Below, in pieces: positions 1 to 50,446 of a DNA stretch of 64,000 bases (position 1 is the first letter of the stretch; each line of letters starts with the position of its first letter). The notes under the pieces were generated by a model that was given only the letters and a program-made list of their open reading frames with translations, ran no database searches and was not told where the DNA came from. The stretch lies in assembly GCF_053078305.1 (NCBI RefSeq), contig NZ_CP166879.1; one strand, 5' to 3'. Position numbers and translations under genes: made by a program.

Positions 1-2
1 CC

Positions 3-29159: not shown

Positions 29160-30701
29160 TTACTCTTCGTTCTTCTTCTGACTCAGACCATATTCCCGCA
29201 ACTTATTGGCAATCGCGGTATGTGAAACGCCGAGACGTTTTGCCAGTTTGCGCGTGCTGGGATAATTGCGATAAAGCTGAGTTAATACCGAGCGTTCAAA
29301 ACGGCTGGTAATTTCGTCCAGCGAACCTTCCATCGCATCTTCGCCCACGGCTACCGTTGCGGCGTCATAATCCGGCAACAAAATATCCTGTGGACGCAGC
29401 TCATAACCGTCCAGTTGTGTCAGTGCGCGATAGATAGCGTTCTTTAACTGCCGCACATTTCCCGGCCACGCATAACGCGTAAGTACAGTATTCAGGTCAG
29501 CGGCCAGTTTCGGACGCGGCACGCCCTGCTCGTCGGCAAAGCGGGCGACGAACAGCTCAGTTAACGGCATGATGTCCTGCGGACAGTCACGTAGCGGTGG
29601 CAGATTGAGCGTCAACACGTTCAGACGATAATAGAGATCTTCACGGAACATGCCTTTTTGCACCAGTTCGACCAGATTCTTCTGCGTAGCGCAAATCACC
29701 CGCACATCGACATGCACCTCATGGTCTTCGCCAACCCGACGGAAAGTGCCATCATTAAGAAAACGCAGTAATTTCGCCTGCATCCGTGGTGACATCTCAC
29801 CTATTTCATCCAACAGCACCGAACCACCGTTCGCCTGCTCAAAGAATCCTTTCTTCCCTTCCGGAGCATGACCAAACAGCTCACTCTCGACCGCATCTTC
29901 CGGTATAGACGCACAGTTCAGCGCCAGGTAAGGTTTGCTCGCTCTTGGGCTTGCCTGATGGCAGGCGTAGGCAAAGAGATCTTTACCTGTACCTGTGTCA
30001 CCCGTAATCAGCAGCGGCGCGCTTAGCATCGCCAGTTTCTGCGCCTGTTCGACAACATGCTTCATTTTCGGGCTGACAGCGACAATTTGACTGAAGGCGC
30101 TGACGTCCTGGGCGGCGACATTTTGCAACTGGCGGCCCATACGAATCGTTGATCGCAACATCACCACCGCACCTGTCAGGACGTGTTGATCATTTTCATC
30201 CTGAAGATAAACAGGCGTAATCTCCATCAGGAAGTTCTGTCCATTAATAACAACATGCTCGTTATGCGAATCTTGCGGTTCGCTTTCCAGCCAACGTAAA
30301 AAATTAAAGCCGTTAATCAATTGTGCGGCGGTATGGTTGCGCAGGCGATCCAATTTTTGCCCAAAAAGCTGACAGCTCGCTGGGTTCGCCATATCCACTT
30401 TGCTTTTCATATCGACAGAGAGCACAGGTTCGGGCAACGCCTCCAGTAACGCGCTCAACGCCAGATGCTCACGTTCGGAAGGCATCCACGGGACAGTACG
30501 CACATCGGTAACACCTGCAATACGGCGTATTTCGGCCATCAGACTGCTGAAACTCTCAAACTCCAGTTCAGCAAAATTGAGGTAGATTCGCCCAATGGGG
30601 TCAATTTCAATACCGCGTAAATCAATGCCTCTTAGCACGAGTAGATCGAGTAATTCGCGGGTCAGACCGAGTCGGTCTTCACAAAAGACTTCCAGACGCA
30701 T
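29160..30701 (-). CDS. tyrR: Transcriptional regulator TyrR (AAA+ domain with C-terminal HTH), 513 aa
   Basis: Walker A GDTGTGKD with no GAFTGA motif, and a C-terminal HTH. Start at MRLEVFCEDRLGL. Confidence 0.9.
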   Translation of the reverse strand: MRLEVFCEDRLGLTRELLDLLVLRGIDLRGIEIDPIGRIYLNFAELEFESFSSLMAEIRRIAGVTDVRTVPWMPSEREHLALSALLEALPEPVLSVDMKSKVDMANPASCQLFGQKLDRLRNHTAAQLINGFNFLRWLESEPQDSHNEHVVINGQNFLMEITPVYLQDENDQHVLTGAVVMLRSTIRMGRQLQNVAAQDVSAFSQIVAVSPKMKHVVEQAQKLAMLSAPLLITGDTGTGKDLFAYACHQASPRASKPYLALNCASIPEDAVESELFGHAPEGKKGFFEQANGGSVLLDEIGEMSPRMQAKLLRFLNDGTFRRVGEDHEVHVDVRVICATQKNLVELVQKGMFREDLYYRLNVLTLNLPPLRDCPQDIMPLTELFVARFADEQGVPRPKLAADLNTVLTRYAWPGNVRQLKNAIYRALTQLDGYELRPQDILLPDYDAATVAVGEDAMEGSLDEITSRFERSVLTQLYRNYPSTRKLAKRLGVSHTAIANKLREYGLSQKKNEE

Positions 30702-30771
30702 GGGAACCTTCACCTGAAAAAAGAACAATTAATATGATGATATGACACTATTTGGATAGCAGGAAGGTTTC

Positions 30772-30789
30772 TGTCAACAATCATTGACA
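30772..30789. promoter_or_regulatory. TyrR-box-like palindrome upstream of tyrR
   Basis: TGTCAA-N6-TTGACA resembles the TyrR box consensus TGTAAA-N6-TTTACA and lies about 70-90 bp upstream of the tyrR start. Confidence 0.3.
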
Positions 30790-30848
30790 CAAAGACGGAA
30801 AAACGGGCACTTCGGCGTAAAGATATCCGGTCAGCACCCGATATTGCA

Positions 30849-31910
30849 TTATTTTTCGCTGGGCGTTTTGCCTTTTTGCAGCGTTTCTTTCACCTGACCG
30901 ATAAGCTGACGACGGAAATCCCCGAGGCGAGGTTTGTCATCGTCAATCCACGGCAGCGGGCGGCAAAGCTCCATAGCTTTAATCCCGAGTCGTGCCGTCA
31001 GAAGCCCAGCACCAATCCCCTGAGCTGCGCGGGTAGACAAACGAGCAGCGAGATCTTGCGACATCCAGTCCATCCCCACTTCGCGCACCAATTCGCTGGC
31101 TCCGGCGAAAGCGATATTCAGCAATACCAGCTTGAACAGGCGCAAACGGCTGTAATATCCCAGTTCAATGCCATACAGCGTGGCGATGCGATTAATCAAA
31201 CGCAGATTGCGCCAGGCGATAAATGCCATATCCACCAGCGCCAGCGGGCTGACCGCAATCATCAACGTTGATTCCGCTGCCGAACGGCTGATTTCGCGCC
31301 GCGCCTGGGCATCTAAAACTGGCTGGACCAAATGCGCATACAAACTGACCACTTCACGGTCGTTTTGCGTTTCATGGATTGAGGCATACCAGCGTTGCAG
31401 CGCCGGATGTGACTGATCGATGCCCGCCTGCTGCGCCAGTTTTTCGCAAAATGCGCGGCCTTTGCCGGTTCCGTGGCTATGCAATAAATCACGCGCTTCG
31501 TCGCGTTCATGGGCGCGCTGTCGCAAGCGCCATAAGCGCCGCCACTCTGTTACCACAGAACCTACGCCAGCGCCGATAATCAATGCCCCAGCGGCACATC
31601 CACCCAGCGCCACCCAGTCCTGAGTTTGCCAGGCATTCATTGTCCACTGTATACCCTGCCCGACAACGCTTGCGCCAAACAGAGCCAGCCCGCCCATCAC
31701 CATTTTGCGCCACAGGCTGCGTTTCGGACGTAACGCTGCGTCCATTACCGCTTCGACTTGCCCCTCTTCTTCCTGCGCTTCGTCGAGCGTGGCCGGGGCA
31801 AAATTTTGCGCCTGATTTTCGTCAAAGGTCTGCTGCGCCCTGAATTTAGGATTCTGATCGACCTCCAGAGGACCGTCGAAATCAATACGTGGTTTTAACG
31901 GTTCGGTCAT
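30849..31910 (-). CDS. ycjF: Inner-membrane protein YcjF (DUF697/UPF0283), 353 aa
   Basis: Central transmembrane segments. Start overlaps the ycjX stop (ATGA). Confidence 0.85.
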
Positions 31911-33304
31911 CGCAATTTATCTCCTATTAAAAATTCCAGCGCAGCATCAAGACGAATATGCGGCAGCGGTTTGTCGACATCCATCACCTGCGGGCGAAAC
32001 GCTTCAAACTGGAACCCTTGCTTGTCCCAGAACGCCTGACCGGGCAAACGCGCAGGAACTTCACCGGGGTAAACGGTGAGAGGCGCACCATCGCTAAGTC
32101 GATTACCGCGCAGCGCCGGGATTTTCTCACCGTTAACATCAATAATGCCACTGGTGGTCGCCTGAACTGACGCCAACCCCAGGCAATCCATGCTGATCCC
32201 TTCGAACGCCGCATTTTGCCAGGCATCCTGAATTAGTTGTTGCAGCAATGAAACCATATTGGCGTGCTGATCAATGGTCACATGGTCCGCTTTAGTGGCA
32301 GCAAACAATAGCTTATCGATAACCGGCGAAAACAAACGCCTGAACAGGGTACGCTGCCCATAGTGGAAACTTTGCATCAGCTGCGTCAGCGCCAGACGCA
32401 TATCATTAAATGCCTGTGGCCCACTGTTGAGAGGTTGCAGGCAATCCACCAGCACAATCTGGCGGTCAAAGCGCAGAAAATGATTCTTATAGAACCCCTT
32501 CACCACCTTCTCGCAATAATAATTAAAGCGCTCGCGCAGCATTCCGGCATTGGTATGCTTATCGGCCTGCGCGAGTTTGGACTCGCCCCAGACATCGACA
32601 TCCGGCCACGGGAAGAATTGCAGCGCGGGCGCACCTGCCATATCCCCCGGCAAGACAAAGCGCCCAGGCTGAATAAAGTGCAGCCCCTGCTGTTTACAGT
32701 GGTGGAGATAATCGGTCCACGCGGCGGCAATGTCTGCCAGCCGGTTTTCGTCGGCAGGCGCTAGCGGGTCCAGCCCTTCGCACATCATTCGCCATTTCGC
32801 CGACCATTCGCCACGCTGACCATTGAGTAAGCCCGTCATCTGGCGCGACCAGCTTAAATAGTCCTGCGCCAGCATCGGCAGGTCGAGCAACCATTCGCCA
32901 GGGTAATCCACAATCTCCAGATACAGCGTGGAGGTATCCTTAAAGTGGCGTAGCAGCGAATCGTTCGATTTAAAACGTAGCGCCAGGCGAATTTCGCTGA
33001 CGCCGCGCGTTGGCGTTGGCCAGGCAGGTGGATCGCCATATAACTGCGCCAGCCCTTCATCATAGGTGAAGCGCGGAATGCCAAAGTCACGCTGGGGAAT
33101 GCGTTTTACGCCCAGCAGCCGTTCTTCACGCACCGCGCTTAACAGCGGCAAGCGTGCTCCGGCGTGAATATTGAGCAACTGATTGACCATCGCAGTGATA
33201 AACGCCGTTTTGCCGCTGCGGCTAAGTCCGGTTACGGCGAGGCGCAGATGTCTGTCGACACCCCGATTCACCAGCGCATTGAGTTCATTTTTAAGTCGCT
33301 TCAT
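31907..33304 (-). CDS. ycjX: P-loop NTPase YcjX (DUF463), 465 aa
   Basis: Walker A GLSRSGKT. Confidence 0.85.
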
Positions 33305-33358
33305 TGCTGTCCTGTGCTGCTCTGAAGACCAGAAAAAAAATCATTCGTAAGGATATGA

Positions 33359-33386
33359 ATGTGGGGGCCAGGCCATTGATTATCAA
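33359..33386 (-). promoter_or_regulatory. Candidate sigma32 (heat-shock) promoter for ycjX-ycjF
   Basis: Minus strand reads TTGATAA, a 12-nt spacer, then CCCCCACAT, resembling the sigma32 consensus CTTGAAA-N13-15-CCCCATNT. It lies about 55 bp upstream of the ycjX ATG. Confidence 0.4.
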
Positions 33387-33459
33387 CTGCCCGTGTTGTC
33401 ATCGACGGGCGAACTCCATAAGATGTGCAGCATTCACGTTCGGACGGAGTTCCTGACCT

Positions 33460-34458
33460 ATGTCCCCTACTATTTATGATATTGCCAGGGTTGCAGGCGT
33501 ATCAAAATCCACCGTATCACGCGTGCTGAATAAGCAAACCAATATCTCCCCGGAAGCGCGCGAAAAAGTGTTACGGGCCATTGAAGAATTACAGTATCAA
33601 CCAAACAAGCTGGCCCGCGCGCTGACCTCTTCGGGTTTTGATGCCATTATGGTGATTTCTACCCGTTCGACCAAAACTACGGCGGGTAATCCGTTTTTCT
33701 CTGAAGTTTTGCATGCCATCACCGCCAAAGCTGAAGAAGAAGGTTTCGACGTGATATTGCAGACGTCGCACAACCTGGCAGAAGACTTACAAAAATGTGA
33801 AAGCAAAATTAAGCAGAAAATGATTAAAGGCATAATTATGCTAAGCTCACCTGCTGATGAATCGTTTTTTGCGCAACTCGATAAATACGATATTCCGGTG
33901 GTGGTGATTGGCAAAGTTGAAGGTCAATATGCCCATGTTTATTCTGTCGATACCGATAATTTTGGCGACAGCATTGCGTTGACCGATGCGTTAATTGAAA
34001 GTGGACATCAAAATATTGCCTGTCTGCATGCACCGCTTGATGTCCATGTTTCAGTGGATCGGGTAAATGGTTATAAGCAGAGTCTGGAAGATCATAATAT
34101 TGCAGTGCGTGATGAATGGATTGTTGATGGCGGTTATACCCATGAAACAGCACTGCAAGCAGCACGGCAATTATTAAGTCAGTCACCGTTGCCTGAGGCA
34201 GTGTTTGCCACTGACAGCCTGAAATTAATGAGCATTTATCGTGCAGCGGCAGAGAAAAACATTGCTATTCCGCATCAGTTAGCGGTGGTGGGTTATAGTA
34301 ATGAAACGCTGTCGTTTATATTAACGCCTGCACCGGGCGGCATCGATGTTCCGACGCAGGAGTTAGGTCAACAAAGCTGCGAGTTATTATTCCGCTTAAT
34401 TTCTGGAAAACCGTCACCACAGAATATTACCGTTGCCACGCATATGTCGTTGAAATAA
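33460..34458 (+). CDS. ycjW: LacI-family transcriptional regulator YcjW, 332 aa
   Basis: N-terminal LacI HTH ([20 protein letters not shown]) and a periplasmic-binding-protein-like effector domain. Confidence 0.85.
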
Positions 34459-34464
34459 ATGTAT

Positions 34465-34494
34465 GCCGGATTTGGCGCTCGCGCCGCATCCGGC
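34465..34494. repeat. REP element between ycjW and ompG
   Basis: gccggatttggcgctcgcgccgcatccggc, a REP-type palindrome. Confidence 0.5.
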
Positions 34495-34508
34495 AATTTA
34501 GCCCATTA

Positions 34509-35414
34509 TCAGAACGAGTAATTTACGCCGACACCTGCATAATGGAATTTATCACTGTCTCCTTCGTCGTGATCCTGCCACTCAAACGCGTATTCCAGCG
34601 AAACGGAAAGACCATTCTGGAAATCATAACCGTAAAATAAACCCACACGGTTAAAATCATGGCCTTCACGTTCAATATCATCCTGCCAGTCCCAGTTACT
34701 CCAGCGATCCAGCCCAATGCGCGTATACGGCGTCACCGAGTGGTTGCCGAGCGTCAGCGGCAAATAGGCGCGAATTTCTTGCGTGGAAAACTCACCGTTA
34801 TTGCGGCTGTCGTCCATATTGAAGCCGCGCTCGAGATAATAGTTCACTCGCAAAGCAACCGTTTCGTTGAAGGTATATTGCAGACCTGTTTCCGTTTCGA
34901 CACGGGTATCAGCGTAACCGGTCGTGTTCAAATCGTTGGCAAATTTATACATCGACAACCAACCGTTGAAACGTAAATCGTCAGTCAGTTTCACATCCCA
35001 GTCTGGCGCGATTTTCCAGCGCTGCATATTCGCCGTGTCTTTGCCCGGTTCATCAACGTAGTGATAACCATAATTACGGAAACCGCCGGTCAGGCCGAAA
35101 CTGAAATCATCGCTTTCGAGGAACTGATAATGCACCTCCAGCTCCGGGCGATCAAACCACGTTCCACGTTTACCCGCGCTATAATCAACCGGCCCTTCCT
35201 GATAATAGGCCAGAGAAATTCTCCACGGCCCGTTGGCGGCATTAAAATAGACAGAAGGCTCCGCCAGTCCATCCATATCTTCGCCATAACCCTCGACGTT
35301 TTCTATTTCGTACATCGCGCCGATATTAAAGTGCCAGTCGTTCTTTTCCTCGGCCTGTGCGCAGGCCATTCCCGCACACATCACCAGTGCGGTACAGGGT
35401 AATAACTTTTTCAT
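34509..35414 (-). CDS. ompG: Outer membrane porin OmpG, 301 aa
   Basis: Signal peptide, beta-barrel alternating pattern, C-terminal ...NYSF. Confidence 0.9.
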   Translation of the reverse strand: MKKLLPCTALVMCAGMACAQAEEKNDWHFNIGAMYEIENVEGYGEDMDGLAEPSVYFNAANGPWRISLAYYQEGPVDYSAGKRGTWFDRPELEVHYQFLESDDFSFGLTGGFRNYGYHYVDEPGKDTANMQRWKIAPDWDVKLTDDLRFNGWLSMYKFANDLNTTGYADTRVETETGLQYTFNETVALRVNYYLERGFNMDDSRNNGEFSTQEIRAYLPLTLGNHSVTPYTRIGLDRWSNWDWQDDIEREGHDFNRVGLFYGYDFQNGLSVSLEYAFEWQDHDEGDSDKFHYAGVGVNYSF

Positions 35415-35458
35415 TATTGTTCCTTGTATTATCCTGGGGGAATGCCTTCCCCCTGTAT

Positions 35459-36541
35459 TTAGCGAATTGCTATTTCCGTTTCTGCATCAAAGAAATGACA
35501 TTTAGTCATATCAAAATGAATAGTGATATTTTCTCCTGCATGATAATCATTTAACGCACCAGCACGGACCACTAACTCGTGCCCCCCAACCGTGGTGTAG
35601 AGCATAAATTCCGCACCGGTTAATTCTGCCACGCTAATTTTGGCGGAAATGTTATTTTCCTCTTGCGCGTCCGGATGAATATCTTCCGGGCGTATTCCCA
35701 TCACGATGGGCTTATGCAAACTTTCCTGTGTTTTCAGAACCGCTAATTTCTCTTCGGGAATGGTTAATTTAAGCGTTTCCGTAACGAATTTATTGCCATC
35801 GATCGTGCCGCGAATAAAATTCATCGCCGGTGATCCAATAAATCCGGCAACAAACATATTCGCGGGTTGGTTATAAACGGTTTTCGGCGCACCTACTTGC
35901 TGAACAATCCCGTCTTTCATAATCACAATCCGCGTCGCCATGGTCATCGCTTCGGTCTGATCGTGGGTCACGTAGATCATGGTGGTGTTCAGTTTCTGAT
36001 GCAGCTTGCTGATCTCTGCGCGCATTTGCACGCGCAGCTTGGCATCAAGGTTAGAGAGCGGTTCATCCATTAAAAACACGCCCGCTTCGCGTACAATCGC
36101 CCGCCCGAGCGCCACACGCTGACGTTGCCCGCCGGAAAGCGCGCCCGGCTTGCGTTTCAGGTACTCACGCAGGCCGAGAATTTGCGCCGCCCAGTTCACC
36201 CGCTCATCAATCACCTCTTTGGCGATTTTTTGCATCTTCAGGCCAAACGCCATGTTGTCGTAAACCGTCATATGCGGATACAACGCGTAGTTCTGGAACA
36301 CCATCGCGATATTGCGTGCTTTAGCTGGAACGTCATTCATTCGTTTGCCGTCGATCAACAGATCGCCGCCGCTGATCTCCTCAAGCCCGGCAATCATGCG
36401 CAGGGTGGTCGATTTACCGCAGCCCGACGGGCCGACAAATACAATGAACTCTTTATCGGCAATTTCCAGGTTGAAGTCCTTCACCACATGCACCTGGTTA
36501 TCGTAGATTTTTTGAATATGTTGTAACGAAAGCTGAGCCAT
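35459..36541 (-). CDS. ycjV: ABC transporter ATP-binding protein (MalK-like), intact 360 aa
   Basis: Walker A GPSGCGKST, ABC signature LSGGQ, Walker B VFLMDEPLSNLD. The reading frame is uninterrupted. Confidence 0.85.
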   Translation of the reverse strand: MAQLSLQHIQKIYDNQVHVVKDFNLEIADKEFIVFVGPSGCGKSTTLRMIAGLEEISGGDLLIDGKRMNDVPAKARNIAMVFQNYALYPHMTVYDNMAFGLKMQKIAKEVIDERVNWAAQILGLREYLKRKPGALSGGQRQRVALGRAIVREAGVFLMDEPLSNLDAKLRVQMRAEISKLHQKLNTTMIYVTHDQTEAMTMATRIVIMKDGIVQQVGAPKTVYNQPANMFVAGFIGSPAMNFIRGTIDGNKFVTETLKLTIPEEKLAVLKTQESLHKPIVMGIRPEDIHPDAQEENNISAKISVAELTGAEFMLYTTVGGHELVVRAGALNDYHAGENITIHFDMTKCHFFDAETEIAIR

Positions 36542-36554
36542 GTTAATTCCTTTG

Positions 36555-37214
36555 CTATACGTTTTGCCAGAAGGCCGATAACCGCGACCAGGTCAGGGAG
36601 TCCGTTGAAGGCAATAGTAATTGCGCCCCGGTTAAGCCCGCGCCGATCCCCACCGAGCGCATACCGCTGGCGTTAATGGCGTCAATGCCCGCCTGCGCAT
36701 CTTCAATGCCGATACATGCCTGCGGCGGCACGCCCAGCCCGGCACAAGCAGCGAGAAAGATTTCCGGATCCGGTTTCGAGTTTTTAAGTTGGGAAGCATC
36801 CGCGCAGAAGGTGAAAAACTCGCGCAGCTCCAGCGCCGCTAAAATCGTCGGCGCATTGAGGGAGACAGAAGCCAGCCCTACCGCGATCTGCTGTGCGCGG
36901 AGATCTGCCAGCAAAGGCCGGATCCCCGGCAGAACGGCATTAACCGTCAGTTCGCGCAGTGAGTGGACGTAGAGCAGATTTTTGCGATACGCCAGTTGCG
37001 CCCGCTCCTGCGAGTTAAAGTCGCCCTCTTTGCCCCCGTATTGCAGAATGCGCCGCAGAGACTCATCGCGGCTAATCCCTTTTAGGGATTCGTTAAACTG
37101 CGCATCAATGCTGATGCCAATTTCAGCGGCAATCTGCTGCCACGCCTGGAAATGCAGATGCGCGGTATCGGTGATTACACCATCCAGATCGAAAATTACC
37201 CCTTGCAGTTTCAT
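36555..37214 (-). CDS. ycjU: Beta-phosphoglucomutase (HAD superfamily), 219 aa
   Basis: HAD motif [10 protein letters not shown]. Confidence 0.85.
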
Positions 37215-39478
37215 TCATCCTCCTGATGCGTGGTAGCGGTCCCATTGAAGGGCAAAATAAAATCACCCAAACAGAAAACAGATTCTTCAGCCACGGATAT
37301 AAGCTGACCGTTCAAACGCAGTGAAACGGGCGCAGAAGTTCGAATCGCAATACGCTGCGCGTCGAGAGTGACCTGTAATTCGCAGCCCTGCCAGAACAGA
37401 GGGAAAGACAACTGTTGCCACTGCTCCGGTAACGCCGGATTGAGATGCAATTCACCGTCACGCACGCTCACCCCGGCAAAACCCTGAATCGCCCCCAGCC
37501 AGATAGCGCCAGTTGCGGCAGCATGGATACCATCATCACAACTATGCGGATCAGCACCAAGATCGATTTCAGTCCCCTCGCGCCAGAACTGATAACTTTG
37601 GGTCAGCAGGCCACAGCGTGCGGCAACAATGCCGTGGATTGCTTTACTTAATGACGAGTCGTGAATAGTGCGCGGTTCATAAAATTGCAGATTGGCAAGA
37701 CACGATGCCGCTGAGAACTGCTCCGGCAGCATGTAATTGAGCATCACCACATCAGCTTGTTTGAGGATCTGCATCTCGTTCACTTCTGCGCGTGAATAAT
37801 CCAGCAGTATGGTTTGCTTCCCCGCCGCCGCTTTGTATTTCGCCAGATTAATCGCCGGCTTAGCCATAAACGAATCATCCTGCGGCAAAACGCCGTCGGG
37901 CTGAATTTCTGGCATCCATAGCTCTTTGAGGAACATTTCGGCGCGATGGATAAACGCATCGTCGCTACAGCCGAACTGGCGGGCAATATTCAGCGCCTGT
38001 TGAACGTTGTAGCGGGCCATATAGCTGGTGTATGCATTATTATTGACATGTTCGGTATATTCGTCTGGCCCAATAACATCATGAATTTCCAGACGATCGT
38101 TAACTCTCACCGCGCGGCTAATCCAGAACTTTGCCGTCTCCAGAAGTAGCGCCATGCCTTCATGAGCAATGAAACTTTCATCCCCCGTTGTCTGCCAGTA
38201 TTGAATAACCGCCCAGGCGATATCGGCCACCAGATGATGTTCCGCCTGCGCCGAAGCCACTTTTTGCCGCAGCCCGGTGCGAATGTTAATGGCGGCAAAT
38301 TCCGGCGTCTCTTCTTCGCCGCTGCGCGCGCTTTCCCACGGAAATAGCGCGCCCTGCCAGCCGTTGCGTCGCGCTTTCTCCTGCGCGCCTGGCAAGTTGT
38401 GCCAGCGATAACGCAGTAAACTTCGGGCAACCGTCGGATCGCTAAGCAGATGAAACGGTAGCAAAAATACTTCTGTATCCCAGAAAACGTGGCCTTTGTA
38501 GCCTTCGCCGGTTAAGCCTTTCGCCGCAATGCTGCTGCGCTCGTCGTGAGCAGGCGTCATGATGCGCAGATGATAAAGCGCATAATCTAACGCTTGCTGA
38601 TCGTGCTCATCGCCGCCATTTACCGTGATACGACGTTTCTGCCACCATTGACGCCAGTTTTCTGTTGATGCAGCAAGAAGTTGGTCGTAACTCTGCTGCG
38701 CGCACATTTCAAGCTGGCGAAGCGACGCGCTGCCCCACTCGTCTAAAACGGCTTGCCTGTCATCCCGCCAGTCGATCCACACCAGTTTTTGCAACGTCAC
38801 TGTCTCGCCTGCATGAAGCTGCGCACTGGTATGTTGCAGCAAACGGCGCTCTTTGGCGGTATAGCATTGCTGCACATCACCGCTCACCTTACAGCAACAG
38901 TTGATGGCCACATCACTGCGTCCATCCTGGGTGGTGTAGATCCCCTGCATCAGATGCTGACCAAACACCCGCACCTGGGTTTCGTCGAGATGTTGGCGAC
39001 CGTGGTTGGTTTGCGTGGCGTCGATACCTGTTGAAATCAGCACTGACGCGTCGGCGTCCAGTGGCGTAATAGTGATTTCCAGCGCAATGAGCGGCAGTTG
39101 GTCTGCCGAAACAAAGCGACGGCTGGCGATGGTGTAACCTGCGCCGTTGCTGGTACGCCAGACAACGTTGCGGCGTAATTCGCCACTGGCAAAGTCAAGC
39201 TCACGCTGCCAGGCTTCGTGGGATAACGAGAAAACCTCACCATTTATGGCAATCTCCATCCCCAAGATATCAGGCAGGTTCACCAGTTCGTTGATTTCAC
39301 CTTTTCCCGCCCGATGATACAGCCCCGCCAGATACATCCCTCGCGTCTGGCGCGTGTAATCTTCTTCATGGCTGGCGCGAAGCCCAAGATAGCCGTTCCC
39401 CTGCGCCATCAGCGAAGCATACTTGTTCAGGGTATGCTGGCTGAAATGGGGTTCTGATAACGTTACTGGCCTGGTCAT
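37211..39478 (-). CDS. ycjT: GH65 glycoside phosphorylase (kojibiose phosphorylase), 755 aa
   Basis: Size and family-typical sequence. Overlaps ycjU and ycjS by 4 nt each. Confidence 0.85.
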
Positions 39479-40530
39479 AATTCCACACGCGTCCCTGTTT
39501 CTGCGGATTGATACAACGCCGCCACCAGTTGCTGGATGATGTACCCCTGCTCGGCGTCGGCTATCATCACGGGCTTACCCTGTACGTGATTGATAAAGGC
39601 TTCCATGCTGCGCAAATGGCGGTTGTCGTCTGCCATTTCCCGTTGCATCAGCGTCATTAACTCACCGTTGTTATCGGTATAGATATGTGCCGGAAACAGC
39701 GTCGCCCCTGCTTTATCGCCACAAAAGCTGACGTTCATAATCGACTGTTCGCGGATGTTGAGTGCAAATGACGTTTCCAGCCACAGAATGCCGCCGTTAT
39801 GAAATTCAATGGTGCCAAACAACGAATCTTCGACACTGTAAGTTGCCGGGTCCCACTCGCCAAACTGACCGCAGCTCTTTTGCGTGCCGATCTTTTGAAA
39901 ACTATGCGCATTCACGCTTTTCACCGCCGGAAAGCCCAGCACATACATCGCCGCATCCAGCATATGAATACCGATGTCGATCAGTGGGCCACCACCTTGC
40001 AGTTCTTTATTGGTAAAGACACCCCAGCCGGGAACGCCGCAGCGACGCAGGGCGCGGGCGGTGGTAACGTAAATCTCTCCCAAAACGCCGTTGGTCACCT
40101 GTTCACGCAGCTGTTGCGTATCGAGCGCAAAACGATGGTGAAAGTCGTAGGCCAGCACCTTGCCCTGTTTGCGCGCGGTATCGCACATTTCCCGCGCCTG
40201 TTCTGGCGTCATGGCGGGCGGTTTTTCGCACATCACATGGCAGCCCGCTTCAAGCGCCATCAGGGTATGTTCGTAATGAAAACGGTTAGGTGAGCAGACG
40301 CTAACCACATCAGGTTTCACCGCCAGCAGCATGGCCTGCGGATCGTCCCACACGGATGCATTCCCGTATTTTTCTGCCAGCGCCTGCGCCTGGGAAAGGC
40401 GGCTGTCACAGACAGCCACCAGTTCCAGATCGTTGCGGGTGCAGTAGTACGAAGCATGAACCTTATCCGCCACCTGGCCTGCGCCTATTATCGCGACACG
40501 CAGCGGAGAGCTTGTCATTGCACTTTTCAC
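39475..40530 (-). CDS. ycjS: Gfo/Idh/MocA-family NAD(P)-dependent sugar oxidoreductase, 351 aa
   Basis: N-terminal Rossmann motif VAIIGAGQV. Confidence 0.85.
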   Translation of the reverse strand: MKSAMTSSPLRVAIIGAGQVADKVHASYYCTRNDLELVAVCDSRLSQAQALAEKYGNASVWDDPQAMLLAVKPDVVSVCSPNRFHYEHTLMALEAGCHVMCEKPPAMTPEQAREMCDTARKQGKVLAYDFHHRFALDTQQLREQVTNGVLGEIYVTTARALRRCGVPGWGVFTNKELQGGGPLIDIGIHMLDAAMYVLGFPAVKSVNAHSFQKIGTQKSCGQFGEWDPATYSVEDSLFGTIEFHNGGILWLETSFALNIREQSIMNVSFCGDKAGATLFPAHIYTDNNGELMTLMQREMADDNRHLRSMEAFINHVQGKPVMIADAEQGYIIQQLVAALYQSAETGTRVEL

Positions 40531-40539
40531 AAAGACCTC

Positions 40540-41328
40540 TTAGCAGGTACGCAACCAGGCCAACGAATCACGGTACGCCTGGGCAGGATCTTCTGCCCGG
40601 ATACGCCCTTCATACACCACATAACCCTGATAGTTATCGGCGCGCAGCTGTTCAAACAGCGCGTGGAAATCGAGGGTGCCGCTGCCCGGCTGGTAACGAT
40701 GGTTATCGGCAATATGCACATGACCGAGCAAGTCACGGTTGTCGTGCAGCGCCTGCGCGAGGTTATCTTCTTCGATGTTCATGTGATAGAAATCGCCGAT
40801 AATCTGCACATGTTTAAGATTGTTTTCGACGATGTAACGACGAGCATCGGCGAGGGTGTTGATCATATGATCCTGATAGCGGTTTAACGGTTCGAGATAC
40901 ACCACGGTTCCGGTACGCGCGGCGACCTGTTCCAGTACGCGCAGGGAATCACTCACCATTTTGCGGTCGCCGTCCAGGCTACGCGGCGAGGTCATCGGCG
41001 GTAAGCGGAAGGTAAACATGCCCCACGCTGCCGGAACGACGATACCTTTACCCCCCACTTCTGCCAGCGCTTCGAGAATGCGTTCGATCTGCTTTAAGCC
41101 ATTAAGACGACGCTCTTCGATAAAGTCACCAATCCAGCCGTCATAGCCGCCGCAGGCGGTGGTCACTGGTAAACCGGTTTCTTTGATCGCCGCTTTGACT
41201 TCTTCGATGTTGTTGACCAGCAGTTTGCCGTCAATCTCAAAACCATCGAAGCCCATCTCTTTGATATAACGAAATTTCTCGCGGATATTTTCCGGAAAGA
41301 ATGCCTGATTCTGTGTGCCTATTTTCAT
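40540..41328 (-). CDS. ycjR: Xylose-isomerase-like TIM-barrel sugar epimerase, 262 aa
   Basis: Start at MKIGTQNQAFF gives the K-12 length. The track ORF extends 43 codons further upstream. Confidence 0.8.
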   Translation of the reverse strand: MKIGTQNQAFFPENIREKFRYIKEMGFDGFEIDGKLLVNNIEEVKAAIKETGLPVTTACGGYDGWIGDFIEERRLNGLKQIERILEALAEVGGKGIVVPAAWGMFTFRLPPMTSPRSLDGDRKMVSDSLRVLEQVAARTGTVVYLEPLNRYQDHMINTLADARRYIVENNLKHVQIIGDFYHMNIEEDNLAQALHDNRDLLGHVHIADNHRYQPGSGTLDFHALFEQLRADNYQGYVVYEGRIRAEDPAQAYRDSLAWLRTC

Positions 41329-41345
41329 TTTTTCATTCCTTTGAA

Positions 41346-42398
41346 TTAAAACGTAACGCCCATTTTGATGCTCTGTTCCGGATGCTGATCGACATACTGC
41401 ATGTAGCTTTCCGGGCTGTTGGCAAAGGTCACTACCGGGTCGATTAAATCTTCGCAATTGAGATAACCGTTCATCAGCAGTTCCCAGCAGGTTTCTTCAA
41501 TACGCTTACGGCTCCAGCGCGGATAATCCGGGTTCGGTTCGCTGCACGCGCGGGAGAAAACAATTTTGGCGTTATTGAAATGCGCTTCGCGTCCGAGGTT
41601 AAAACCTTCAGCAAATGGTTTGGCAAACGCGACATAAGAGATGGTGCCGCCGTAGGCCAGACCGCGCAGCGCCGATTGCAGCGCGTCGGCGTAACCGCTG
41701 GTTTCGATAATCACATCGGCACCCTGCTTGCCGGTCAGCGTTTTGATCTCTTTGCCTACGTCAGTGCCAATGGGGTTAAGGCAGAAATCAGCACCGTGGC
41801 GACGGGCAATATCACAGCGATGGGCGATAGGATCGACGCCAATTACCACCGATGCGCCAGCGCGTTTCGCCAGTTGGATGGCAATTTGACCGATCGCGCC
41901 AAGCCCTACCACCACGACAAAATCCCCTACGCGTACGTTGGCATCGCGCACGCCGCTCATGGCAAACTGCGCCGGGTCGTAACAGACGGCGTTTTTCCAG
42001 GAGCTGCCTTGCGGCATTTTGCGCAGCTTGTAGTTATTCACTGCGTTAATGATGACCGTCTCGGAGAGCGGGCCGTAGCCGCATACGCTGTCGCCCACCG
42101 CGTAGTCGGTAACGTCGCTGCCGCACTCGATAATGTCGCCAACCACCATGTTGCCAAGCTGGAATTTGCCAAACTCAATGCCGCGCGGCGCATCTGCCGG
42201 ACGCGGGGTGAACATCTGCCACTCGCCGTTAAAGTCTTCATCGATAAACGGGCTGGCGGCGCGGAAGTCGACCACTTCCGTTCCGTGTTTCGGTGCGCCG
42301 AAACGCACGCGGATCTTCACTTCATTGGCTAAAATCGCCCGATCTTCATACTCAACCAGCGCAGCAACGCGCGGTGCTGTGGCTACTAACTTTTTCAT
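41346..42398 (-). CDS. ycjQ: Zinc-dependent medium-chain dehydrogenase, 350 aa
   Basis: MDR-family Rossmann motif GLGAIGQIA. Confidence 0.85.
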   Translation of the reverse strand: MKKLVATAPRVAALVEYEDRAILANEVKIRVRFGAPKHGTEVVDFRAASPFIDEDFNGEWQMFTPRPADAPRGIEFGKFQLGNMVVGDIIECGSDVTDYAVGDSVCGYGPLSETVIINAVNNYKLRKMPQGSSWKNAVCYDPAQFAMSGVRDANVRVGDFVVVVGLGAIGQIAIQLAKRAGASVVIGVDPIAHRCDIARRHGADFCLNPIGTDVGKEIKTLTGKQGADVIIETSGYADALQSALRGLAYGGTISYVAFAKPFAEGFNLGREAHFNNAKIVFSRACSEPNPDYPRWSRKRIEETCWELLMNGYLNCEDLIDPVVTFANSPESYMQYVDQHPEQSIKMGVTF

Positions 42399-42428
42399 GT
42401 AAAACTCCTTGTAAAGAAACTGGCCGCT

Positions 42429-43271
42429 TTAGCCCTTCACGCCACCGGCGGTCAAACCACTCTTAATAAAACGTTCCGAAAGCGCATACATAATCACCAC
42501 CGGCAATGCGGTCACCAGCGAGGCCGCCATCATGCGTCCCCAGATGTAATCAGGCGTACTGAACAGCGCGTTCAGGCCCACTGGTAAGGTGAAATTGCTG
42601 GCGCTGGAGAGGAAAATCGACGCAAACAGATAGTCGTTCCACGCCACCATAAAGCAGTAGACGAACACCGATATCAGCCCGGACATCGCCAGGGGCACGG
42701 TGATACGGAAGATAATTTGCAGACGGTTGAGGCCATCCATCATCGCCGCTTCTTCGATCTCATCAGGGATGGTGTCGAAGTAACTTTTCAGCATAAACAC
42801 GGCGGTGGGCAGAGTTTGCGTCACCATGGTAATGATCAGCGCCATCTCGGTGTCGTAAATTCCAAGTGCGGTGATAATTTTGAACAGCGGCACCACCAGC
42901 AAAATGCCGGAGAACATGTACACCGTGTAAAAGCTAGCGTTGATGGTCATCCGACCTTTAAAGCGCAGGCGAGAAAGCGCGTAAGCCCCGAGAATGCCGA
43001 GAAATACCGCCACCACGGATGAAACCACCGACACCACCATGCTGTTACGGAAGTAGTCGACAAACGGGAAAATCACCGGGTTAAAAATGTCGACGTAATG
43101 CTCCAGCGTCCACTGCTGTGGCAGCAGCGTAGGATGCAGCGAGATCGCCTCTTTTGCGCTCTTGAACGAGGTCATCAGCATCACAAAAAACGGAAATAGC
43201 GTGATGATGAGAAACAGCGCCAGCCCGCAGTAAAAACCGATGCGACTGAGTGTGCGTTTATTTGTTGCCAT
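42429..43271 (-). CDS. ycjP: ABC transporter permease (MalG-like), 280 aa
   Basis: Polytopic membrane protein. Overlaps ycjO. Confidence 0.85.
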   Translation of the reverse strand: MATNKRTLSRIGFYCGLALFLIITLFPFFVMLMTSFKSAKEAISLHPTLLPQQWTLEHYVDIFNPVIFPFVDYFRNSMVVSVVSSVVAVFLGILGAYALSRLRFKGRMTINASFYTVYMFSGILLVVPLFKIITALGIYDTEMALIITMVTQTLPTAVFMLKSYFDTIPDEIEEAAMMDGLNRLQIIFRITVPLAMSGLISVFVYCFMVAWNDYLFASIFLSSASNFTLPVGLNALFSTPDYIWGRMMAASLVTALPVVIMYALSERFIKSGLTAGGVKG

Positions 43272-44139
43272 TGAGGTTCACCCGTTTCCTGGTCAGCAGA
43301 ATGACAGCGAAAATAATGATGAAGAGCACCACCGAGATCGCCGCCGCTTTCCCTAAGTCATTAAAGGCAAAGGCAGTTTTGTAGAGATAAACGCCGAGAA
43401 TATCGACCTTGGTCGTCAGCAGATAAACGTCAGCGAACATGTAGAACATCCAGATGGTGCGCAGGGTCACCACCGTCGCCAGGACCGGCATAATCGCGGG
43501 CAGCGTGACGATGCGAAACCGTTGCCAGGCATTAGCGCCATCCATCTCTGCCGCTTCGTACAACGATTTATCAATGGTCTGCAAAATCGCCAGAAACGAG
43601 ATAAAGGCATATGGGAAATAGCGCCAGATGGCGAACAGCACCACCAGCACAAAGCTACTGCCCGGGTTATCGAACCACAGCGGTGCCTGCTCGTAGAGAT
43701 GCAGAAGATCGACGCCGAGGTAGTTCACAATGCCGTAGCCGTTGTTGAACATGTATTTCCAGGCGAACACCAGCGAAATGGACGGCGTTACGTAGGAGAG
43801 GATCACCAGCGAACGCGCGGTTTTGCGCAGGCGGAACTCGCGGTTGAAAAACATCGCCACCGCCAGCCCGAGCACGGTGCTGCCCGCCACCACCAGCGCG
43901 GTATACCAGACCGTCATCCACAGCGAATGCCAGAAGCCGGGATCGGAGAGGATACGCACATAGTTGCTCACCCCAACAAACGTTGACTCGATGTTGGGAT
44001 TGAGCGGCAGACGTAAAAAACTGATTTCGATATTCGACACCATCGGCCACGCCACCAGACCGCCCAGCAGTAATAAGCTGGGCGCGAGAAGCAGCAGCGC
44101 AAACGGCATATCGGAACGACCTGAAAAAAGCCTGTTCAT
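43258..44139 (-). CDS. ycjO: ABC transporter permease (MalF-like), 293 aa
   Basis: Polytopic membrane protein with an EAA-like loop. Confidence 0.85.
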   Translation of the reverse strand: MNRLFSGRSDMPFALLLLAPSLLLLGGLVAWPMVSNIEISFLRLPLNPNIESTFVGVSNYVRILSDPGFWHSLWMTVWYTALVVAGSTVLGLAVAMFFNREFRLRKTARSLVILSYVTPSISLVFAWKYMFNNGYGIVNYLGVDLLHLYEQAPLWFDNPGSSFVLVVLFAIWRYFPYAFISFLAILQTIDKSLYEAAEMDGANAWQRFRIVTLPAIMPVLATVVTLRTIWMFYMFADVYLLTTKVDILGVYLYKTAFAFNDLGKAAAISVVLFIIIFAVILLTRKRVNLNGNK

Positions 44140-44159
44140 TGCGGATTCCTGTCCTGGGT

Positions 44160-45452
44160 TTAGTGCTGTTCGATCAGTTCATCCAGCTTTTTCTGGCTCG
44201 CTTGCAGCGTGCCAGGGAGATCGGCTTTACCCACGGTGACGTTATGCACCATTGAACTCACCACGCCAGAACCCGTCACATCACCCATGCGGGTAAAGTT
44301 TTTATCCCCTACTGCGCCAAAAACCTGAATATTTGGCAGTTCACCGATTAGCTGATTCGGTAGTTCACCCAGCGCCTTGATCACGTCGTTGTCTTTCCAG
44401 GTGGCGGTAGTGACAACCGCTTTGTTCACCGGCAGTGCCGCGCCTGGCGACATCATCACCCAGTCGGCAATGTTGTCCGCCTGCTCCATAAAGGTGACAA
44501 ATTTTTCAGCCGCTTCCGTTTCTTCAGTCTTTTGCCCGGCGGTAATGGTCAGCGAGGTCAACATGCCGTAGACCGCAGAGTTTTTCTCGGTTGGCACCAC
44601 GAAACCGACGTTTTTCGGGTCACCTTCTTTAATCACAGCCGGAAGGATATAGGTGGAGTAAATCGCCATCGGCGCGGTGCCGTTCATAAAGGCGTCTTTC
44701 ACTTCCATGATGTCGTTAGAACCCGGCATGGTGTTGGCAGCAAGGTCGCGGTAATAGGTCAGCGCCTGCATCATCTCTGGTGTATCAAGGGTGATTTTGC
44801 CTTCGGCGTTAAAGACGTTGGCCTGGTTGGATAACGCAAACTGGGAGAAGGATTGTTCCGTCAGCACGCTTTCTGCCGTAGGCAGCGCAATACCGTATTT
44901 TTTATTCGCCGGGTCATTCAGTTTCTGTGCAACGTCCAGCAGCTGTTGCCAGTTTTTCGGCTCCTCCAGCCCGGCTTTTGCCAGCACATCTTTGCGATAC
45001 CAGATGCCGCCAATCCAGGCGCTGACAGGAACACCGGTCCATGCGCTACCATCTTCGGTACGCACAATACGCAGTACGCCATCGTAAAACGCGCCTTCAC
45101 CAACGTTGCTGATGACCGTGGCAACCGCTTTTCGATCGATAAGCTGCTCTTTATCCATAACTTTGGCGTAGTCATGGCTGGTTTCGATCACTTCCGGCAG
45201 CGAACCGCTACGTGAAAGGGTAATGACTTTAGTGTTATAGGCATCTTCTTCCACGGGCACTTGCTTAATGGTGATGCCCGGGTTTTCTTTTTCAAAACGG
45301 GCAATCAATTTACTGATAACGGCCTGGCGCTCCTGCTCCACCGAAGAATGCATAAATTCGATGGATACATGGGTTTTATTTTCTTCTTTACAGCCTGAAA
45401 TCAGGGCGCAGGAAACTAGTGCTGATAACAGCACGATTTTTGATTTAATCAT
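44160..45452 (-). CDS. ycjN: Periplasmic sugar-binding protein of an ABC transporter, 430 aa
   Basis: Lipoprotein-type signal peptide (LSALVSCALISGC) and an SBP family 1 fold. Confidence 0.85.
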   Translation of the reverse strand: MIKSKIVLLSALVSCALISGCKEENKTHVSIEFMHSSVEQERQAVISKLIARFEKENPGITIKQVPVEEDAYNTKVITLSRSGSLPEVIETSHDYAKVMDKEQLIDRKAVATVISNVGEGAFYDGVLRIVRTEDGSAWTGVPVSAWIGGIWYRKDVLAKAGLEEPKNWQQLLDVAQKLNDPANKKYGIALPTAESVLTEQSFSQFALSNQANVFNAEGKITLDTPEMMQALTYYRDLAANTMPGSNDIMEVKDAFMNGTAPMAIYSTYILPAVIKEGDPKNVGFVVPTEKNSAVYGMLTSLTITAGQKTEETEAAEKFVTFMEQADNIADWVMMSPGAALPVNKAVVTTATWKDNDVIKALGELPNQLIGELPNIQVFGAVGDKNFTRMGDVTGSGVVSSMVHNVTVGKADLPGTLQASQKKLDELIEQH

Positions 45453-45466
45453 GAAATGTTCCTTTT

Positions 45467-47146
45467 TTATTTAATCCACATAACCTGCCAGGGGCGCAGC
45501 GTTATTTCATTACCCAATATATCAACTTCACTAATCAGATCCCGACCGTGCAGGCCAGTAATATTTACATGCTGAATATTTTTACTGACATTAAACAATC
45601 CAGTCAGACAATTACCCTCTGCGTTACTTCTTTGAATACGCATTACGGATGAATTAACCGTATCGATGGTAAAATTATTATCCGGATGAAACTCGTTATG
45701 GCTGCGACGAAGTGTAATTAAACGCGATAACTCATGATATACCGCATGCCTTAATGTAGCTTCATCGTTCAGTTCTCGGGTTATCTCTTCACTGTGATAT
45801 TTTTTACGGTTAATCGCACGGTTATATCCGAGTTTTTCGACACCTGCGTAATCATTACGCGAGCCCAGAATACTTTGAATATATATCGCTGGCACACCGG
45901 GGAAACTTAACAAAATCGCATGGGCAAGGATAAACCTGGCGCGACGTTCTTCATCGCTACTCTCGCGGCGGCTTAACGCATCCATATAGGTGACATTTAT
46001 TTCATAGGGACTGCGCGTACCGTCGGGATTATTTTTCCAGTTTACTAATGCACCTTCCTGCTGTAATGCCTCGACCAGCGCTAATATTTCGCTTTCTGGT
46101 AACAAGCCCCGCAGTGGGTTCAGCCCGATGCCATCGTGAGAGGCGAGGAAGTTAAACCAGGTCGTTTTACCGGAGGGCAAGCTCAGACTTTGCGCCCACT
46201 GGCACAGCGCCTCGACGTTCTGTTTTTGCACCGCATGTAACACCAGCGGCGGCAGCGAGAACTGGTACACCATATGCGCTTCGTCATCGCCGTTGCCAAA
46301 GTAAGCAATGTTGTCTTTATGCGGAACATTGGTCTCGGTAATGATCACTGTGCCTGGCGCGACGTTATCAATAATCGACCGTAACAGTTTGATAATCAGA
46401 TGTGTTTTTTCCAGATGGATGCAGCTTGTTCCCGGCTCTTTCCACATAAAGCCAACGGCATCCAGGCGGACATACTCTGCGCCCTTTTCCAGGTAGCACA
46501 GCAAAACATCCACCATCGCCAGCAACACGTCAGGGCTACGGTAATTCAGGTCAATTTGATCGTCGCTAAAGGTGGTCCATAAATGGCGCGTGGAATTATC
46601 ATCCATTTGAAACGGCGTTAATAGCGGTAATGCACGCGGACGGGTGACAGCGCTGAGATCGGTTTGCGGATCAACCGCAATAAAAAAATCTTCAAAACCT
46701 GGCTGCTGTTGTAAATAGTTTTTAAACCATTCACTTTTTGCCGACATATGGTTGCAGACAAAATCAAACATTAAATGACTGCATTCACCGAGCTGCTGAA
46801 TATCCTGCCACTCCCCCGCTTCACTGGCAACCTGATGATAATCAATTACCGAAAATCCATCATCAGATGACCATGGATAAAAAGGTAATAAATGAACATG
46901 TGAAAAAATGCTTTGCAGCCATTGATGGTAGAACTGATTAAATATGGGTAGTGGTTTTAAATCATTACTGTGAAATTGATCGGCATAGGTAATTAACACG
47001 ACGTCACTTTCATCCCAGTGTTTTTTACGTCGCTGTGTAATTAATCGTTTCGCACTCTCAAGACGCGTTACAAGTTTCTGTAAATGAGTTGCGGTAAATG
47101 TTCCACCGTAGATTTCGTCCAGGTAATCCGTAATTTTCTGTTTCAT
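45467..47146 (-). CDS. ycjM: GH13 sucrose-phosphorylase-like enzyme (glucosylglycerate phosphorylase), 559 aa
   Basis: Start at MKQKITDYLD gives the K-12 length. First gene of the ycjM-V cluster. Confidence 0.8.
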   Translation of the reverse strand: MKQKITDYLDEIYGGTFTATHLQKLVTRLESAKRLITQRRKKHWDESDVVLITYADQFHSNDLKPLPIFNQFYHQWLQSIFSHVHLLPFYPWSSDDGFSVIDYHQVASEAGEWQDIQQLGECSHLMFDFVCNHMSAKSEWFKNYLQQQPGFEDFFIAVDPQTDLSAVTRPRALPLLTPFQMDDNSTRHLWTTFSDDQIDLNYRSPDVLLAMVDVLLCYLEKGAEYVRLDAVGFMWKEPGTSCIHLEKTHLIIKLLRSIIDNVAPGTVIITETNVPHKDNIAYFGNGDDEAHMVYQFSLPPLVLHAVQKQNVEALCQWAQSLSLPSGKTTWFNFLASHDGIGLNPLRGLLPESEILALVEALQQEGALVNWKNNPDGTRSPYEINVTYMDALSRRESSDEERRARFILAHAILLSFPGVPAIYIQSILGSRNDYAGVEKLGYNRAINRKKYHSEEITRELNDEATLRHAVYHELSRLITLRRSHNEFHPDNNFTIDTVNSSVMRIQRSNAEGNCLTGLFNVSKNIQHVNITGLHGRDLISEVDILGNEITLRPWQVMWIK

Positions 47147-47317
47147 GTTGCCTTTCCGTGGTAGCGGTCCCATGAAACGAGAGACTACTCCGCAGAAAAT
47201 AAACTGTCAATTGAGCACAAGGGTTTTAGTCACGCTGGAAATCATTTTTTACCAGGGAAAAAGCGTATTTGTGAGCTGACGCAAATAATCTATAGGGATG
47301 TAAATAAGGTGTGACAG

Positions 47318-47340
47318 AAAAAAACGGCGCATAAGCGCCG
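47318..47340 (-). terminator. Intrinsic terminator after pspE
   Basis: Minus strand reads hairpin cggcgc-ttat-gcgccg followed by U7. Confidence 0.5.
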
Positions 47341-47356
47341 CTCATGGTGAATTCTT

Positions 47357-47671
47357 TTAACCTTTGACCTTCGGCATTGCGATGTCTTTCAGGCCACCGG
47401 CGTTCTCAACGTGGGTATATCCCATCTCGCTAAGGATCTCTTTTGCCTGCCCGGACTGGCGTCCGGCATTGCAATACACTTTCACGGTGTCGTTTTTATC
47501 GGGAACGGCGGTGGCAATGCGCTCTTTCACTTCCTTCAGGGGAATATTGATGGCCCCCTGAACGTGCTCTTGCTGATACTGCTCTGGAACACGAACATCG
47601 ATCCAGTGTTCAGCGGCAAAAACGGGCAGTGAAAACACCAGTGCCAGAGCAAGTAAGCCTTTTTTAAACAT
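47357..47671 (-). CDS. pspE: Periplasmic rhodanese (thiosulfate sulfurtransferase) PspE, 104 aa
   Basis: Signal peptide and rhodanese active-site Cys (VKVYCNAGRQS). Confidence 0.9.
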   Translation of the reverse strand: MFKKGLLALALVFSLPVFAAEHWIDVRVPEQYQQEHVQGAINIPLKEVKERIATAVPDKNDTVKVYCNAGRQSGQAKEILSEMGYTHVENAGGLKDIAMPKVKG

Positions 47672-47745
47672 GTAAGCGTCCTTCTATGGATGAAAATTGC
47701 CATCCATTATAGGCCTGAGATTTAACAATTTTTGCGAAACTCCCC

Positions 47746-47967
47746 TCACCTTTTATAACGCTGTGCCAGTTTATTAGCAGCCCGACTTAACAGCGGTTCC
47801 AGCGCCACAGCCAGCAACATTTTCAGCGGTCGGCGAGCAACTGATTTTATCGCCCAGCCCGCCACACCCGCCGGGCCATAGCGCAGTGCGGTAAGAAGTA
47901 CCAGCTTGCCTGCTAATTTGAAACCAGGCTTTACCTTTTGCCCGGCCTGTTGCCAGCGAGTATTCAT
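47746..47967 (-). CDS. pspD: Phage shock protein D, 73 aa
   Basis: Position in the psp operon. Start at MNTRWQQ. Confidence 0.8.
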
Positions 47968-47975
47968 AACTTTCC

Positions 47976-48335
47976 TCACAGTTGACGGAAACGGCTACGT
48001 AACGTGAATGTATCGGAAGTGACATAACGTTCCATCTCGCGTAAACGCGTTTCACTTGCCGCCAGTTCACGGTCGACTTCATCCAGCAATTCACTGCTGG
48101 AAGGTAGCTGCTCACCAAAGGCCATGTTGTCCGGCATTGGATCAAGCGCAAATGACAAAATGATGTAAGCAACCAGGGTAAACAGCGCCAGACCGAAGAA
48201 AATCGACAACACCACCAGGATACGCACCAGTTTTACCGGTACATCAAAATAGTTGGCAATCCCGGCGCAGACGCCACGGACCATGCCCTGCTGTGGAATA
48301 CGCCATAATTTTTTATTGAGATTAATGCCCGCCAT
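47976..48335 (-). CDS. pspC: Phage shock protein C, 119 aa
   Basis: Single transmembrane helix and leucine-zipper-like C-terminus. ATGA overlap with pspB. Confidence 0.9.
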
Positions 48336-48559
48336 TAGCGATCCCTCCAGTTCGGATGTTCTGCATCAAGAATAGATTCCAGCGCCTGAATACGTTCGCG
48401 CATCCGTTTTGCTTCATCAGCCAGTTGCGCTAATCGCTGCTGCTCACTTTGCGACAATTCACTGCGACCAGAACGATTGCTGTAATGCAGCCATAACCAG
48501 ATCGGTAAAACAAACAGCACAAAAATGGTTAATGGAATAGCCAGAAATAGCGCGCTCAT
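48335..48559 (-). CDS. pspB: Phage shock protein B, 74 aa
   Basis: N-terminal transmembrane helix. Confidence 0.9.
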   Translation of the reverse strand: MSALFLAIPLTIFVLFVLPIWLWLHYSNRSGRSELSQSEQQRLAQLADEAKRMRERIQALESILDAEHPNWRDR

Positions 48560-48612
48560 AAGTACTCCTTAGACGATGAGCGGCGGCGCGTTCGGACGCC
48601 GCCTGGATGTTA

Positions 48613-49353
<741 letters not shown>

Positions 49354-49447
49354 TTATCTTTTTGATTTATAAAGATCTGATTGAAGATTCAACAGCAACA
49401 TGCCAGGATGAATTAGCGAATTACACTAACAAGTGGCGAATTTCATC

Positions 49448-50425: not shown

Positions 50426-50446
50426 CGAAGTTGGGCAATACAACTT

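Follow-up and report, generated by a model that had tools for sequence, protein, structure and literature searches.

Described relatives of YcjV and previous work on the ycj cluster

The YcjV protein of Escherichia coli BL21(DE3) (WP_000057985.1) is encoded at the same locus as the gene described here, between pgmB/ycjU and ompG, and is likewise 360 amino acids long. The two proteins are identical at 358 of 360 residues, with S232 and D250 in the BL21(DE3) protein in place of the A232 and N250 found here. When the BL21(DE3) protein was expressed and purified, its accumulation was stable and it was still able to hydrolyze ATP (Leisico et al. 2020, PMC7658222). The same locus in K-12 carries ycjV' and ymjB (b1318/b4524), where a run of six G residues is one G short. 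The "pseudogene ycjV locus" of K-12 has served as an integration site in metabolic engineering (PMC10380740), and ycjV is given as a pseudogene in an evolution study (PMC4786092). The gene, its intact form and its pseudogene status in K-12 are therefore not new, being already present in public annotation and the literature.

MsmX of Bacillus subtilis (structure 6YIR) shares with YcjV both the nucleotide-binding and the regulatory domain, with a reported identity of 64% (PMC7658222). However, MsmX is the product of an orphan gene and acts as a multitask ATPase for several CUT1-type permeases; the ycjV gene, by contrast, belongs to a single operon. E. coli YcjV did not complement a B. subtilis msmX mutant, and the charged residues D77/R104/E110/K154, which have been tied to MsmX multitasking, are missing from it (PMC7658222). 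E. coli MalK (1Q12, from MalFGK2) and UgpC belong to the same family as YcjV and have the same motifs and C-terminal OB/TOBE domain, and MalFGK2 serves as the mechanistic template for the expected action of YcjV. No ATP-driven transport assay for YcjV was found in the papers searched.

The operon ycjMNOPQRSTUV-ompG is repressed by YcjW, which is freed from DNA by kojibiose in vitro (Luhachack et al. 2019, PMC6599011). According to the same paper, repression by YcjW is tight under laboratory conditions, minimal medium with kojibiose does not support growth of MG1655 (a point credited to Mukherjee et al. 2018), and deletion of ycjW did not rescue growth of K-12 with kojibiose. Purified YcjN showed no thermal shift by nanoDSF with kojibiose, maltose, glucose or the other ligands screened (JBC 2024, PMC11543891), and in the available sections of that paper glucosylglycerate was not found among the test ligands. 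As none of the screened sugars produced a shift, kojibiose and glucosylglycerate-type compounds are uncertain as test substrates for the pathway.

An uninterrupted ycjV gene within a complete ycj cluster

The window, by which we mean the whole 64,000-nt stretch of contig NZ_CP166879.1 that was analyzed, carries ycjV on the minus strand at positions 35459..36541 as a single open reading frame with an ATG start and 360 codons followed by a stop. An AAGGA Shine-Dalgarno sequence lies 7 nt upstream of the ATG, and only 13 nt separate the stop codon of ycjU from the start of ycjV; these translation signals suit a gene within an operon. A promoter and terminator scan around ycjV returned counts at or near those expected from shuffled sequence, leaving an internal promoter unsupported. 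Downstream, 44 nt separate the ycjV stop codon from the start of ompG. Most of this gap is occupied by a GC-rich hairpin, GGGGGAAGGCATTCCCCC on the coding strand (window positions 35436..35453). The operon strand has no T run after it, which makes an intrinsic terminator unlikely; the hairpin might instead serve in mRNA stability or processing.

To place ycjV in its context, K-12 proteins were used as tblastn queries. Seventeen neighbors (pspA-E, ycjM-U, ompG, ycjW and ycjX) were found to be full length and free of gaps, with 96.6 to 100% identity, and their order is that of the K-12 ycj cluster. Immediately upstream of ycjV on the minus strand are ycjU/pgmB (36555..37214), encoding a beta-phosphoglucomutase that matches the K-12 protein over its full length at 97.7% identity, and ycjT (37211..39478), encoding a full-length 755-residue GH65 protein named kojibiose phosphorylase in the K-12 annotation. 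Further upstream on the same strand are the genes for two full-length permeases, ycjP (42429..43271; 280 residues) and ycjO (43258..44139; 293 residues), whose EAA loops are EAAMMDGLNRLQIIFRITVP (residues 174-193) and EAAEMDGANAWQRFRIVTLP (residues 195-214), respectively. They are followed by ycjN (44160..45452, minus strand), which encodes a full-length lipoprotein substrate-binding protein of 430 residues (98.8% identity to K-12 over residues 1-430); Cys21 is its reported lipidation site (PMC11543891). Cognate permeases with recognizable EAA loops and a binding protein are thus encoded upstream of ycjV on its own strand. With YcjN, YcjO and YcjP full length and ycjV intact, every part of a YcjN/YcjOP/YcjV importer is present and uninterrupted.

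The last gene of the operon, ompG (34509..35414, minus strand), encodes a monomeric outer-membrane porin with 99.0% identity to the K-12 protein. It is convergent with a full-length ycjW on the plus strand (33460..34455), the LacI-family gene whose product represses the cluster (PMC6599011). The gap between these two genes (window positions 34456..34508) is 53 nt here, 50 nt in strain SCU-316 and 110 nt in K-12, indicating that K-12 has approximately 57 to 60 nt of additional intergenic sequence.

The position of the open reading frame between ycjU/pgmB and ompG, together with its near identity to annotated YcjV, identifies it as the ycjV orthologue in its intact form. At the nucleotide level it is 99.8% identical to a gene of SCU-316 annotated "ABC transporter ATP-binding protein." An identical protein is already present in NCBI and UniParc, with 343 contigs seen to encode it.

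YcjV has the motifs and domains of a MalK-type ATPase

A preliminary description of this DNA, made by a model from the letters and their open reading frames, had reported a full-length 360-codon ycjV with Walker A, signature and Walker B motifs. All three were located in the translated product, as Walker A (GPSGCGKS, residues 37-44, including K43), the signature (LSGGQ, residues 135-139) and Walker B (VFLMDE, residues 155-160, with D159 and E160). The Q-loop (Q83), D-loop (SNLD, residues 163-166) and H-loop (VTHD, residues 191-194, including H193) are also present, and the six nucleotide-binding motifs keep the canonical order of an ABC ATPase.

Using Pfam, matches to ABC_tran (residues 21-162, 1.2e-31), OB_MalK (residues 236-288, 2.2e-14, 54.5 bits against a cutoff of 27) and TOBE_2 (residues 282-351, 5e-10, 39.8 bits against a cutoff of 21) were identified, all far beyond chance. 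The protein accordingly divides into a nucleotide-binding domain of approximately residues 1-235 and a C-terminal regulatory domain of the MalK type, with an OB fold and TOBE, at approximately residues 236-351. Among the NCBIfam models, YcjV passed PRK11650, the UgpC-type subfamily (484.6 bits against a cutoff of 432), a subfamily-level model that defines no substrate and does not imply glycerol-3-phosphate. It did not reach the cutoff of PRK11000, the MalK equivalog (431.5 against 568 bits). Judged by these models, YcjV is a relative of MalK and not MalK itself. The closest solved structure by sequence is MsmX 6YIR, which aligns end to end (residues 1-360 against 1-365, E = 9e-149), followed by the more distant E. 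coli MalK 1Q12 (E = 4e-100). An AlphaFold2 single-sequence model of YcjV was too poor for use (mean pLDDT 33.9, pTM 0.22); the effect of the K-12 truncation described below was mapped from the domain boundaries given by Pfam and from the end-to-end alignment with MsmX 6YIR.

The K-12 allele lacks a single G

The preliminary description had also stated that ycjV is interrupted in K-12, and comparison with the K-12 sequence bore this out. In MG1655 (NC_000913.3), ycjV (b1318, 1380821..1381789) and ymjB (b4524, 1381789..1381902) are both annotated as pseudogenes and together span 1082 nt, and in the K-12 derivative KLY the ycjV coding sequence is flagged "frameshifted" by the NCBI pipeline. Across the 1083-nt open reading frame of the window, K-12 differs by 15 substitutions, 13 synonymous and two nonsynonymous (A232S and N250D), a 13:2 ratio that is consistent with purifying selection. 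The sole structural difference is the deletion of one G from the run GGGGGG. Alignment with NC_000913.3 places this tract at window positions 35582..35587 on the minus strand (CCCCCC on the plus strand), corresponding to nucleotides 955-960 of the open reading frame and codons G319-G320. The window has all six G residues (G6) and its frame is open to codon 360; it does not carry the K-12-type allele with five (G5), and K-12 does not carry the uninterrupted sequence seen here.

The K-12 ycjV product is 322 amino acids long, being native through G320 and then ending in Thr-Ser-stop, and ymjB represents residues 324-360 in the shifted frame. With the truncation the last 40 residues of the protein (321-360), amounting to nearly half of the TOBE_2 match, are lost, and the ATPase core is kept. 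In an ungapped alignment, the missing residues correspond to 326-365 of the MsmX chain in 6YIR. As they lie within TOBE_2 and are matched in this way in MsmX, their loss probably destabilizes the regulatory/dimerization domain.

An uninterrupted ycjV allele was found in BL21 TaKaRa and BL21(DE3), the two BL21 assemblies among the matches. Apart from the missing G, the ycjV sequence of BL21(DE3) is identical to that of K-12, which suggests that the K-12 lesion is probably recent.

Intact ycjV is the common state in E. coli

To determine how widespread each allele is, a reference set of 5426 complete E. coli genomes was searched. A match to full ycjV was obtained in 5001 of the 5426 genomes, with at least 80% of the gene covered in 4980, and 425 genomes had no match. 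A 66-nt G6 probe centered on the tract was found exactly in 4389 of the 5426 genomes, including BL21(DE3) and O157:H7, while a 65-nt G5 probe of K-12 sequence was found exactly in 369. Among the 60 of these 369 matches that were listed, most are laboratory derivatives of K-12 or laboratory strains of K-12 size, and they include MG1655 sublines, C600, DH5alpha, DH1, J53, NCM3722 and RR1. Intact ycjV is therefore the common state of the species and not a restoration specific to the strain from which the window derives.

The 13.8-kb cluster was at least 80% covered in 4942 of the 5426 genomes; it is near-core and has been lost in some lineages. No match to the cluster (window positions 33400..47200) was found in 376 genomes, and about 100 more had partial coverage, examples being TW10690 at 73% and OY754389, which has ycjW only.

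Although G5 is characteristic of laboratory K-12 strains, it was also found on a different ycjV haplotype. An exact 161-nt probe combining this haplotype with G5 matched 16 genomes, which is a minimum count: 2014C-3051, 08-00022, RM10809-3, EC6622, PEC1011, FCI51 and ten OkiPb isolates from bovine feces. In 2014C-3051 and 08-00022, both of which have G5 and are annotated as frameshifted, ycjV differs from that of K-12 at 20 and 5 other positions, respectively. The ten OkiPb isolates form one series, with G5 at the same coordinate in six and within 70 nt of it in two more. Given the presence of G5 on a separate haplotype, slippage appears to recur at the G6 tract, making the tract an apparent hot spot (it is possible that some of the single non-K-12 cases could be homopolymer assembly errors).

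Sequence surroundings of the cluster

Across 22 kb around the cluster (window positions 30000..52000), the best match among the 5426 complete E. coli genomes was 98.3% identical. Per-kilobase identity over this region ranged from 94.5 to 99.9% against SCU-316 and from 92.9 to 99.2% against K-12, and on this pattern the ycj/psp region is a recombination mosaic. A different species or an unusual lineage as the source of the DNA was considered and rejected, as ordinary mosaic recombination is seen and the flanks match E. coli genomes at 98.7 to 99.6%.

Elsewhere in the window, positions of approximately 5100..7600 (ttcA to dbpA) gave one colinear alignment to TB06051, in which only about 130 nt separate the neighboring genes ttcA and dbpA. 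In K-12 the Rac prophage adjoins ttcA, and the strain studied here thus appears to have an empty site. Positions 1..20500 were at least 80% covered in one place in only 2390 of the 5426 genomes, consistent with variable insertions in that part of the window.

Proposed role of YcjV and alternative explanations

Taken together, the gene content, motifs and allele distribution make it very probable that ycjV of the window is the ancestral wild-type allele, encoding the nucleotide-binding subunit of a YcjN/YcjO-YcjP/YcjV type I ABC sugar importer within a YcjW-repressed operon, and that the K-12 allele is a derivative which has lost one G. The opposite order, with G5 ancestral and G6 derived, is contradicted by the probe counts and the comparison of ycjV alleles. 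The view of the preliminary description that the importer is probably functional in this strain is a reasonable expectation; the ATPase activity of the BL21 protein, two residues different, bears on it only indirectly. By analogy with the family and with MalFGK2, substrate would enter through OmpG and be delivered by YcjN, and two copies of YcjV would engage the EAA loops of YcjO and YcjP through their Q-loop regions. The YcjV dimer would close over two ATP molecules, with Walker A/B contributed by one monomer and LSGGQ by its partner, and hydrolysis, in which E160 would be the catalytic base and H193 the switch histidine, would drive the permease through its inward/outward cycle of alternating access. 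The OB/TOBE C-terminal domains would hold the dimer together and may take regulatory input.

The best-surviving alternative, which we regard as possible but distinctly less likely, is that intact ycjV is redundant or idle, either because MalK or UgpC energizes YcjNOP or because the operon is rarely expressed, such that the K-12 frameshift would be neutral. MalK and UgpC are reportedly functionally exchangeable in E. coli, which favors redundancy. The strong repression by YcjW and the lack of a growth gain on kojibiose upon ycjW deletion in K-12, as given in PMC6599011, also fit this explanation. The recurrence of G5 on a non-K-12 haplotype in 16 genomes, ten of them bovine, suggests that loss is tolerated in nature, and the genomes without ycjV or without the cluster (425 and 376 of 5426, respectively) represent approximately 7 to 8% of the complete genomes. 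Purifying selection on ycjV itself is, however, favored by the 13:2 ratio and by at least 81% of genomes having kept the intact allele. Furthermore, neither YcjV nor MalK was able to replace MsmX on heterologous permeases (PMC7658222), from which it follows that the pairing of nucleotide-binding subunits with permeases is not freely promiscuous. Even with a functional importer, tight repression by YcjW in the laboratory means that intact ycjV may rarely matter for phenotype.

It is rather improbable that the 322-residue K-12 product is still a working ATPase, which would leave the contrast between intact and interrupted alleles without functional meaning. The frameshift does fall late, after residue 320 of 360, and the catalytic motifs (residues 37-194) and OB_MalK (residues 236-288) all lie upstream of it. 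The lost residues 321-360 nevertheless fall inside TOBE_2 (residues 282-351) and align gap-free with MsmX 6YIR, such that their removal would probably be destabilizing, and both NCBI and the K-12 curators annotate a frameshift or pseudogene. The failure of K-12 to grow on kojibiose, taken from PMC6599011, fits a transport defect but is nonspecific.

A homopolymer sequencing or assembly artifact as the source of the G5/G6 difference can be rejected, for although a 6-nt homopolymer is an error-prone context for long-read assemblies and a few sporadic G5 calls in wild strains could be errors, G5 recurs in hundreds of K-12 derivatives sequenced independently of one another, is common to ten bovine isolates and is present in the curated MG1655 reference, and G6 is reproduced in 4389 genomes.

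Implications for work on the ycj pathway

The reading of window ycjV as the wild-type allele and of K-12 ycjV as its truncated derivative bears on the choice of strain for studying this pathway. To our knowledge, nearly all genetics of the ycj cluster has been done in K-12, and such work uses a truncated transporter ATPase. Several recent papers on YcjN and YcjW are, in their available text, silent on the truncation. YcjV is treated as the transporter nucleotide-binding subunit in a bioRxiv YcjN structure paper and in a 2025 YcjN paper; in the accessible portions of both the word "pseudogene" is absent, as is "frameshift" in those of the bioRxiv paper, and no mention of a ycjV pseudogene or frameshift was found in the available text of the YcjW paper (PMC6599011). 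The preliminary description had put forward the strain studied here as a better background for such studies. This holds insofar as the K-12 ATPase is truncated, but the advantage is not particular to this strain, as G6 is present in 4389 of 5426 genomes and common non-K-12 strains are its equal. Uptake and growth tests are properly done in any strain other than K-12, BL21 among them, or in K-12 with a repaired G tract.

A further proposal, which we consider doubtful, is that the single-G deletion is a main reason that MG1655 cannot use kojibiose as a sole carbon source and that the substrate of the pathway has been elusive. If this were true, strains with the intact allele would import and grow on a substrate of the pathway, for example kojibiose, glucosylglycerate or a guloside/3-keto-glucoside. 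The G6 tract would then be a mutational hot spot by which the transporter is naturally switched on or off, as signaled by the recurrence of G5 among wild lineages that are unrelated.
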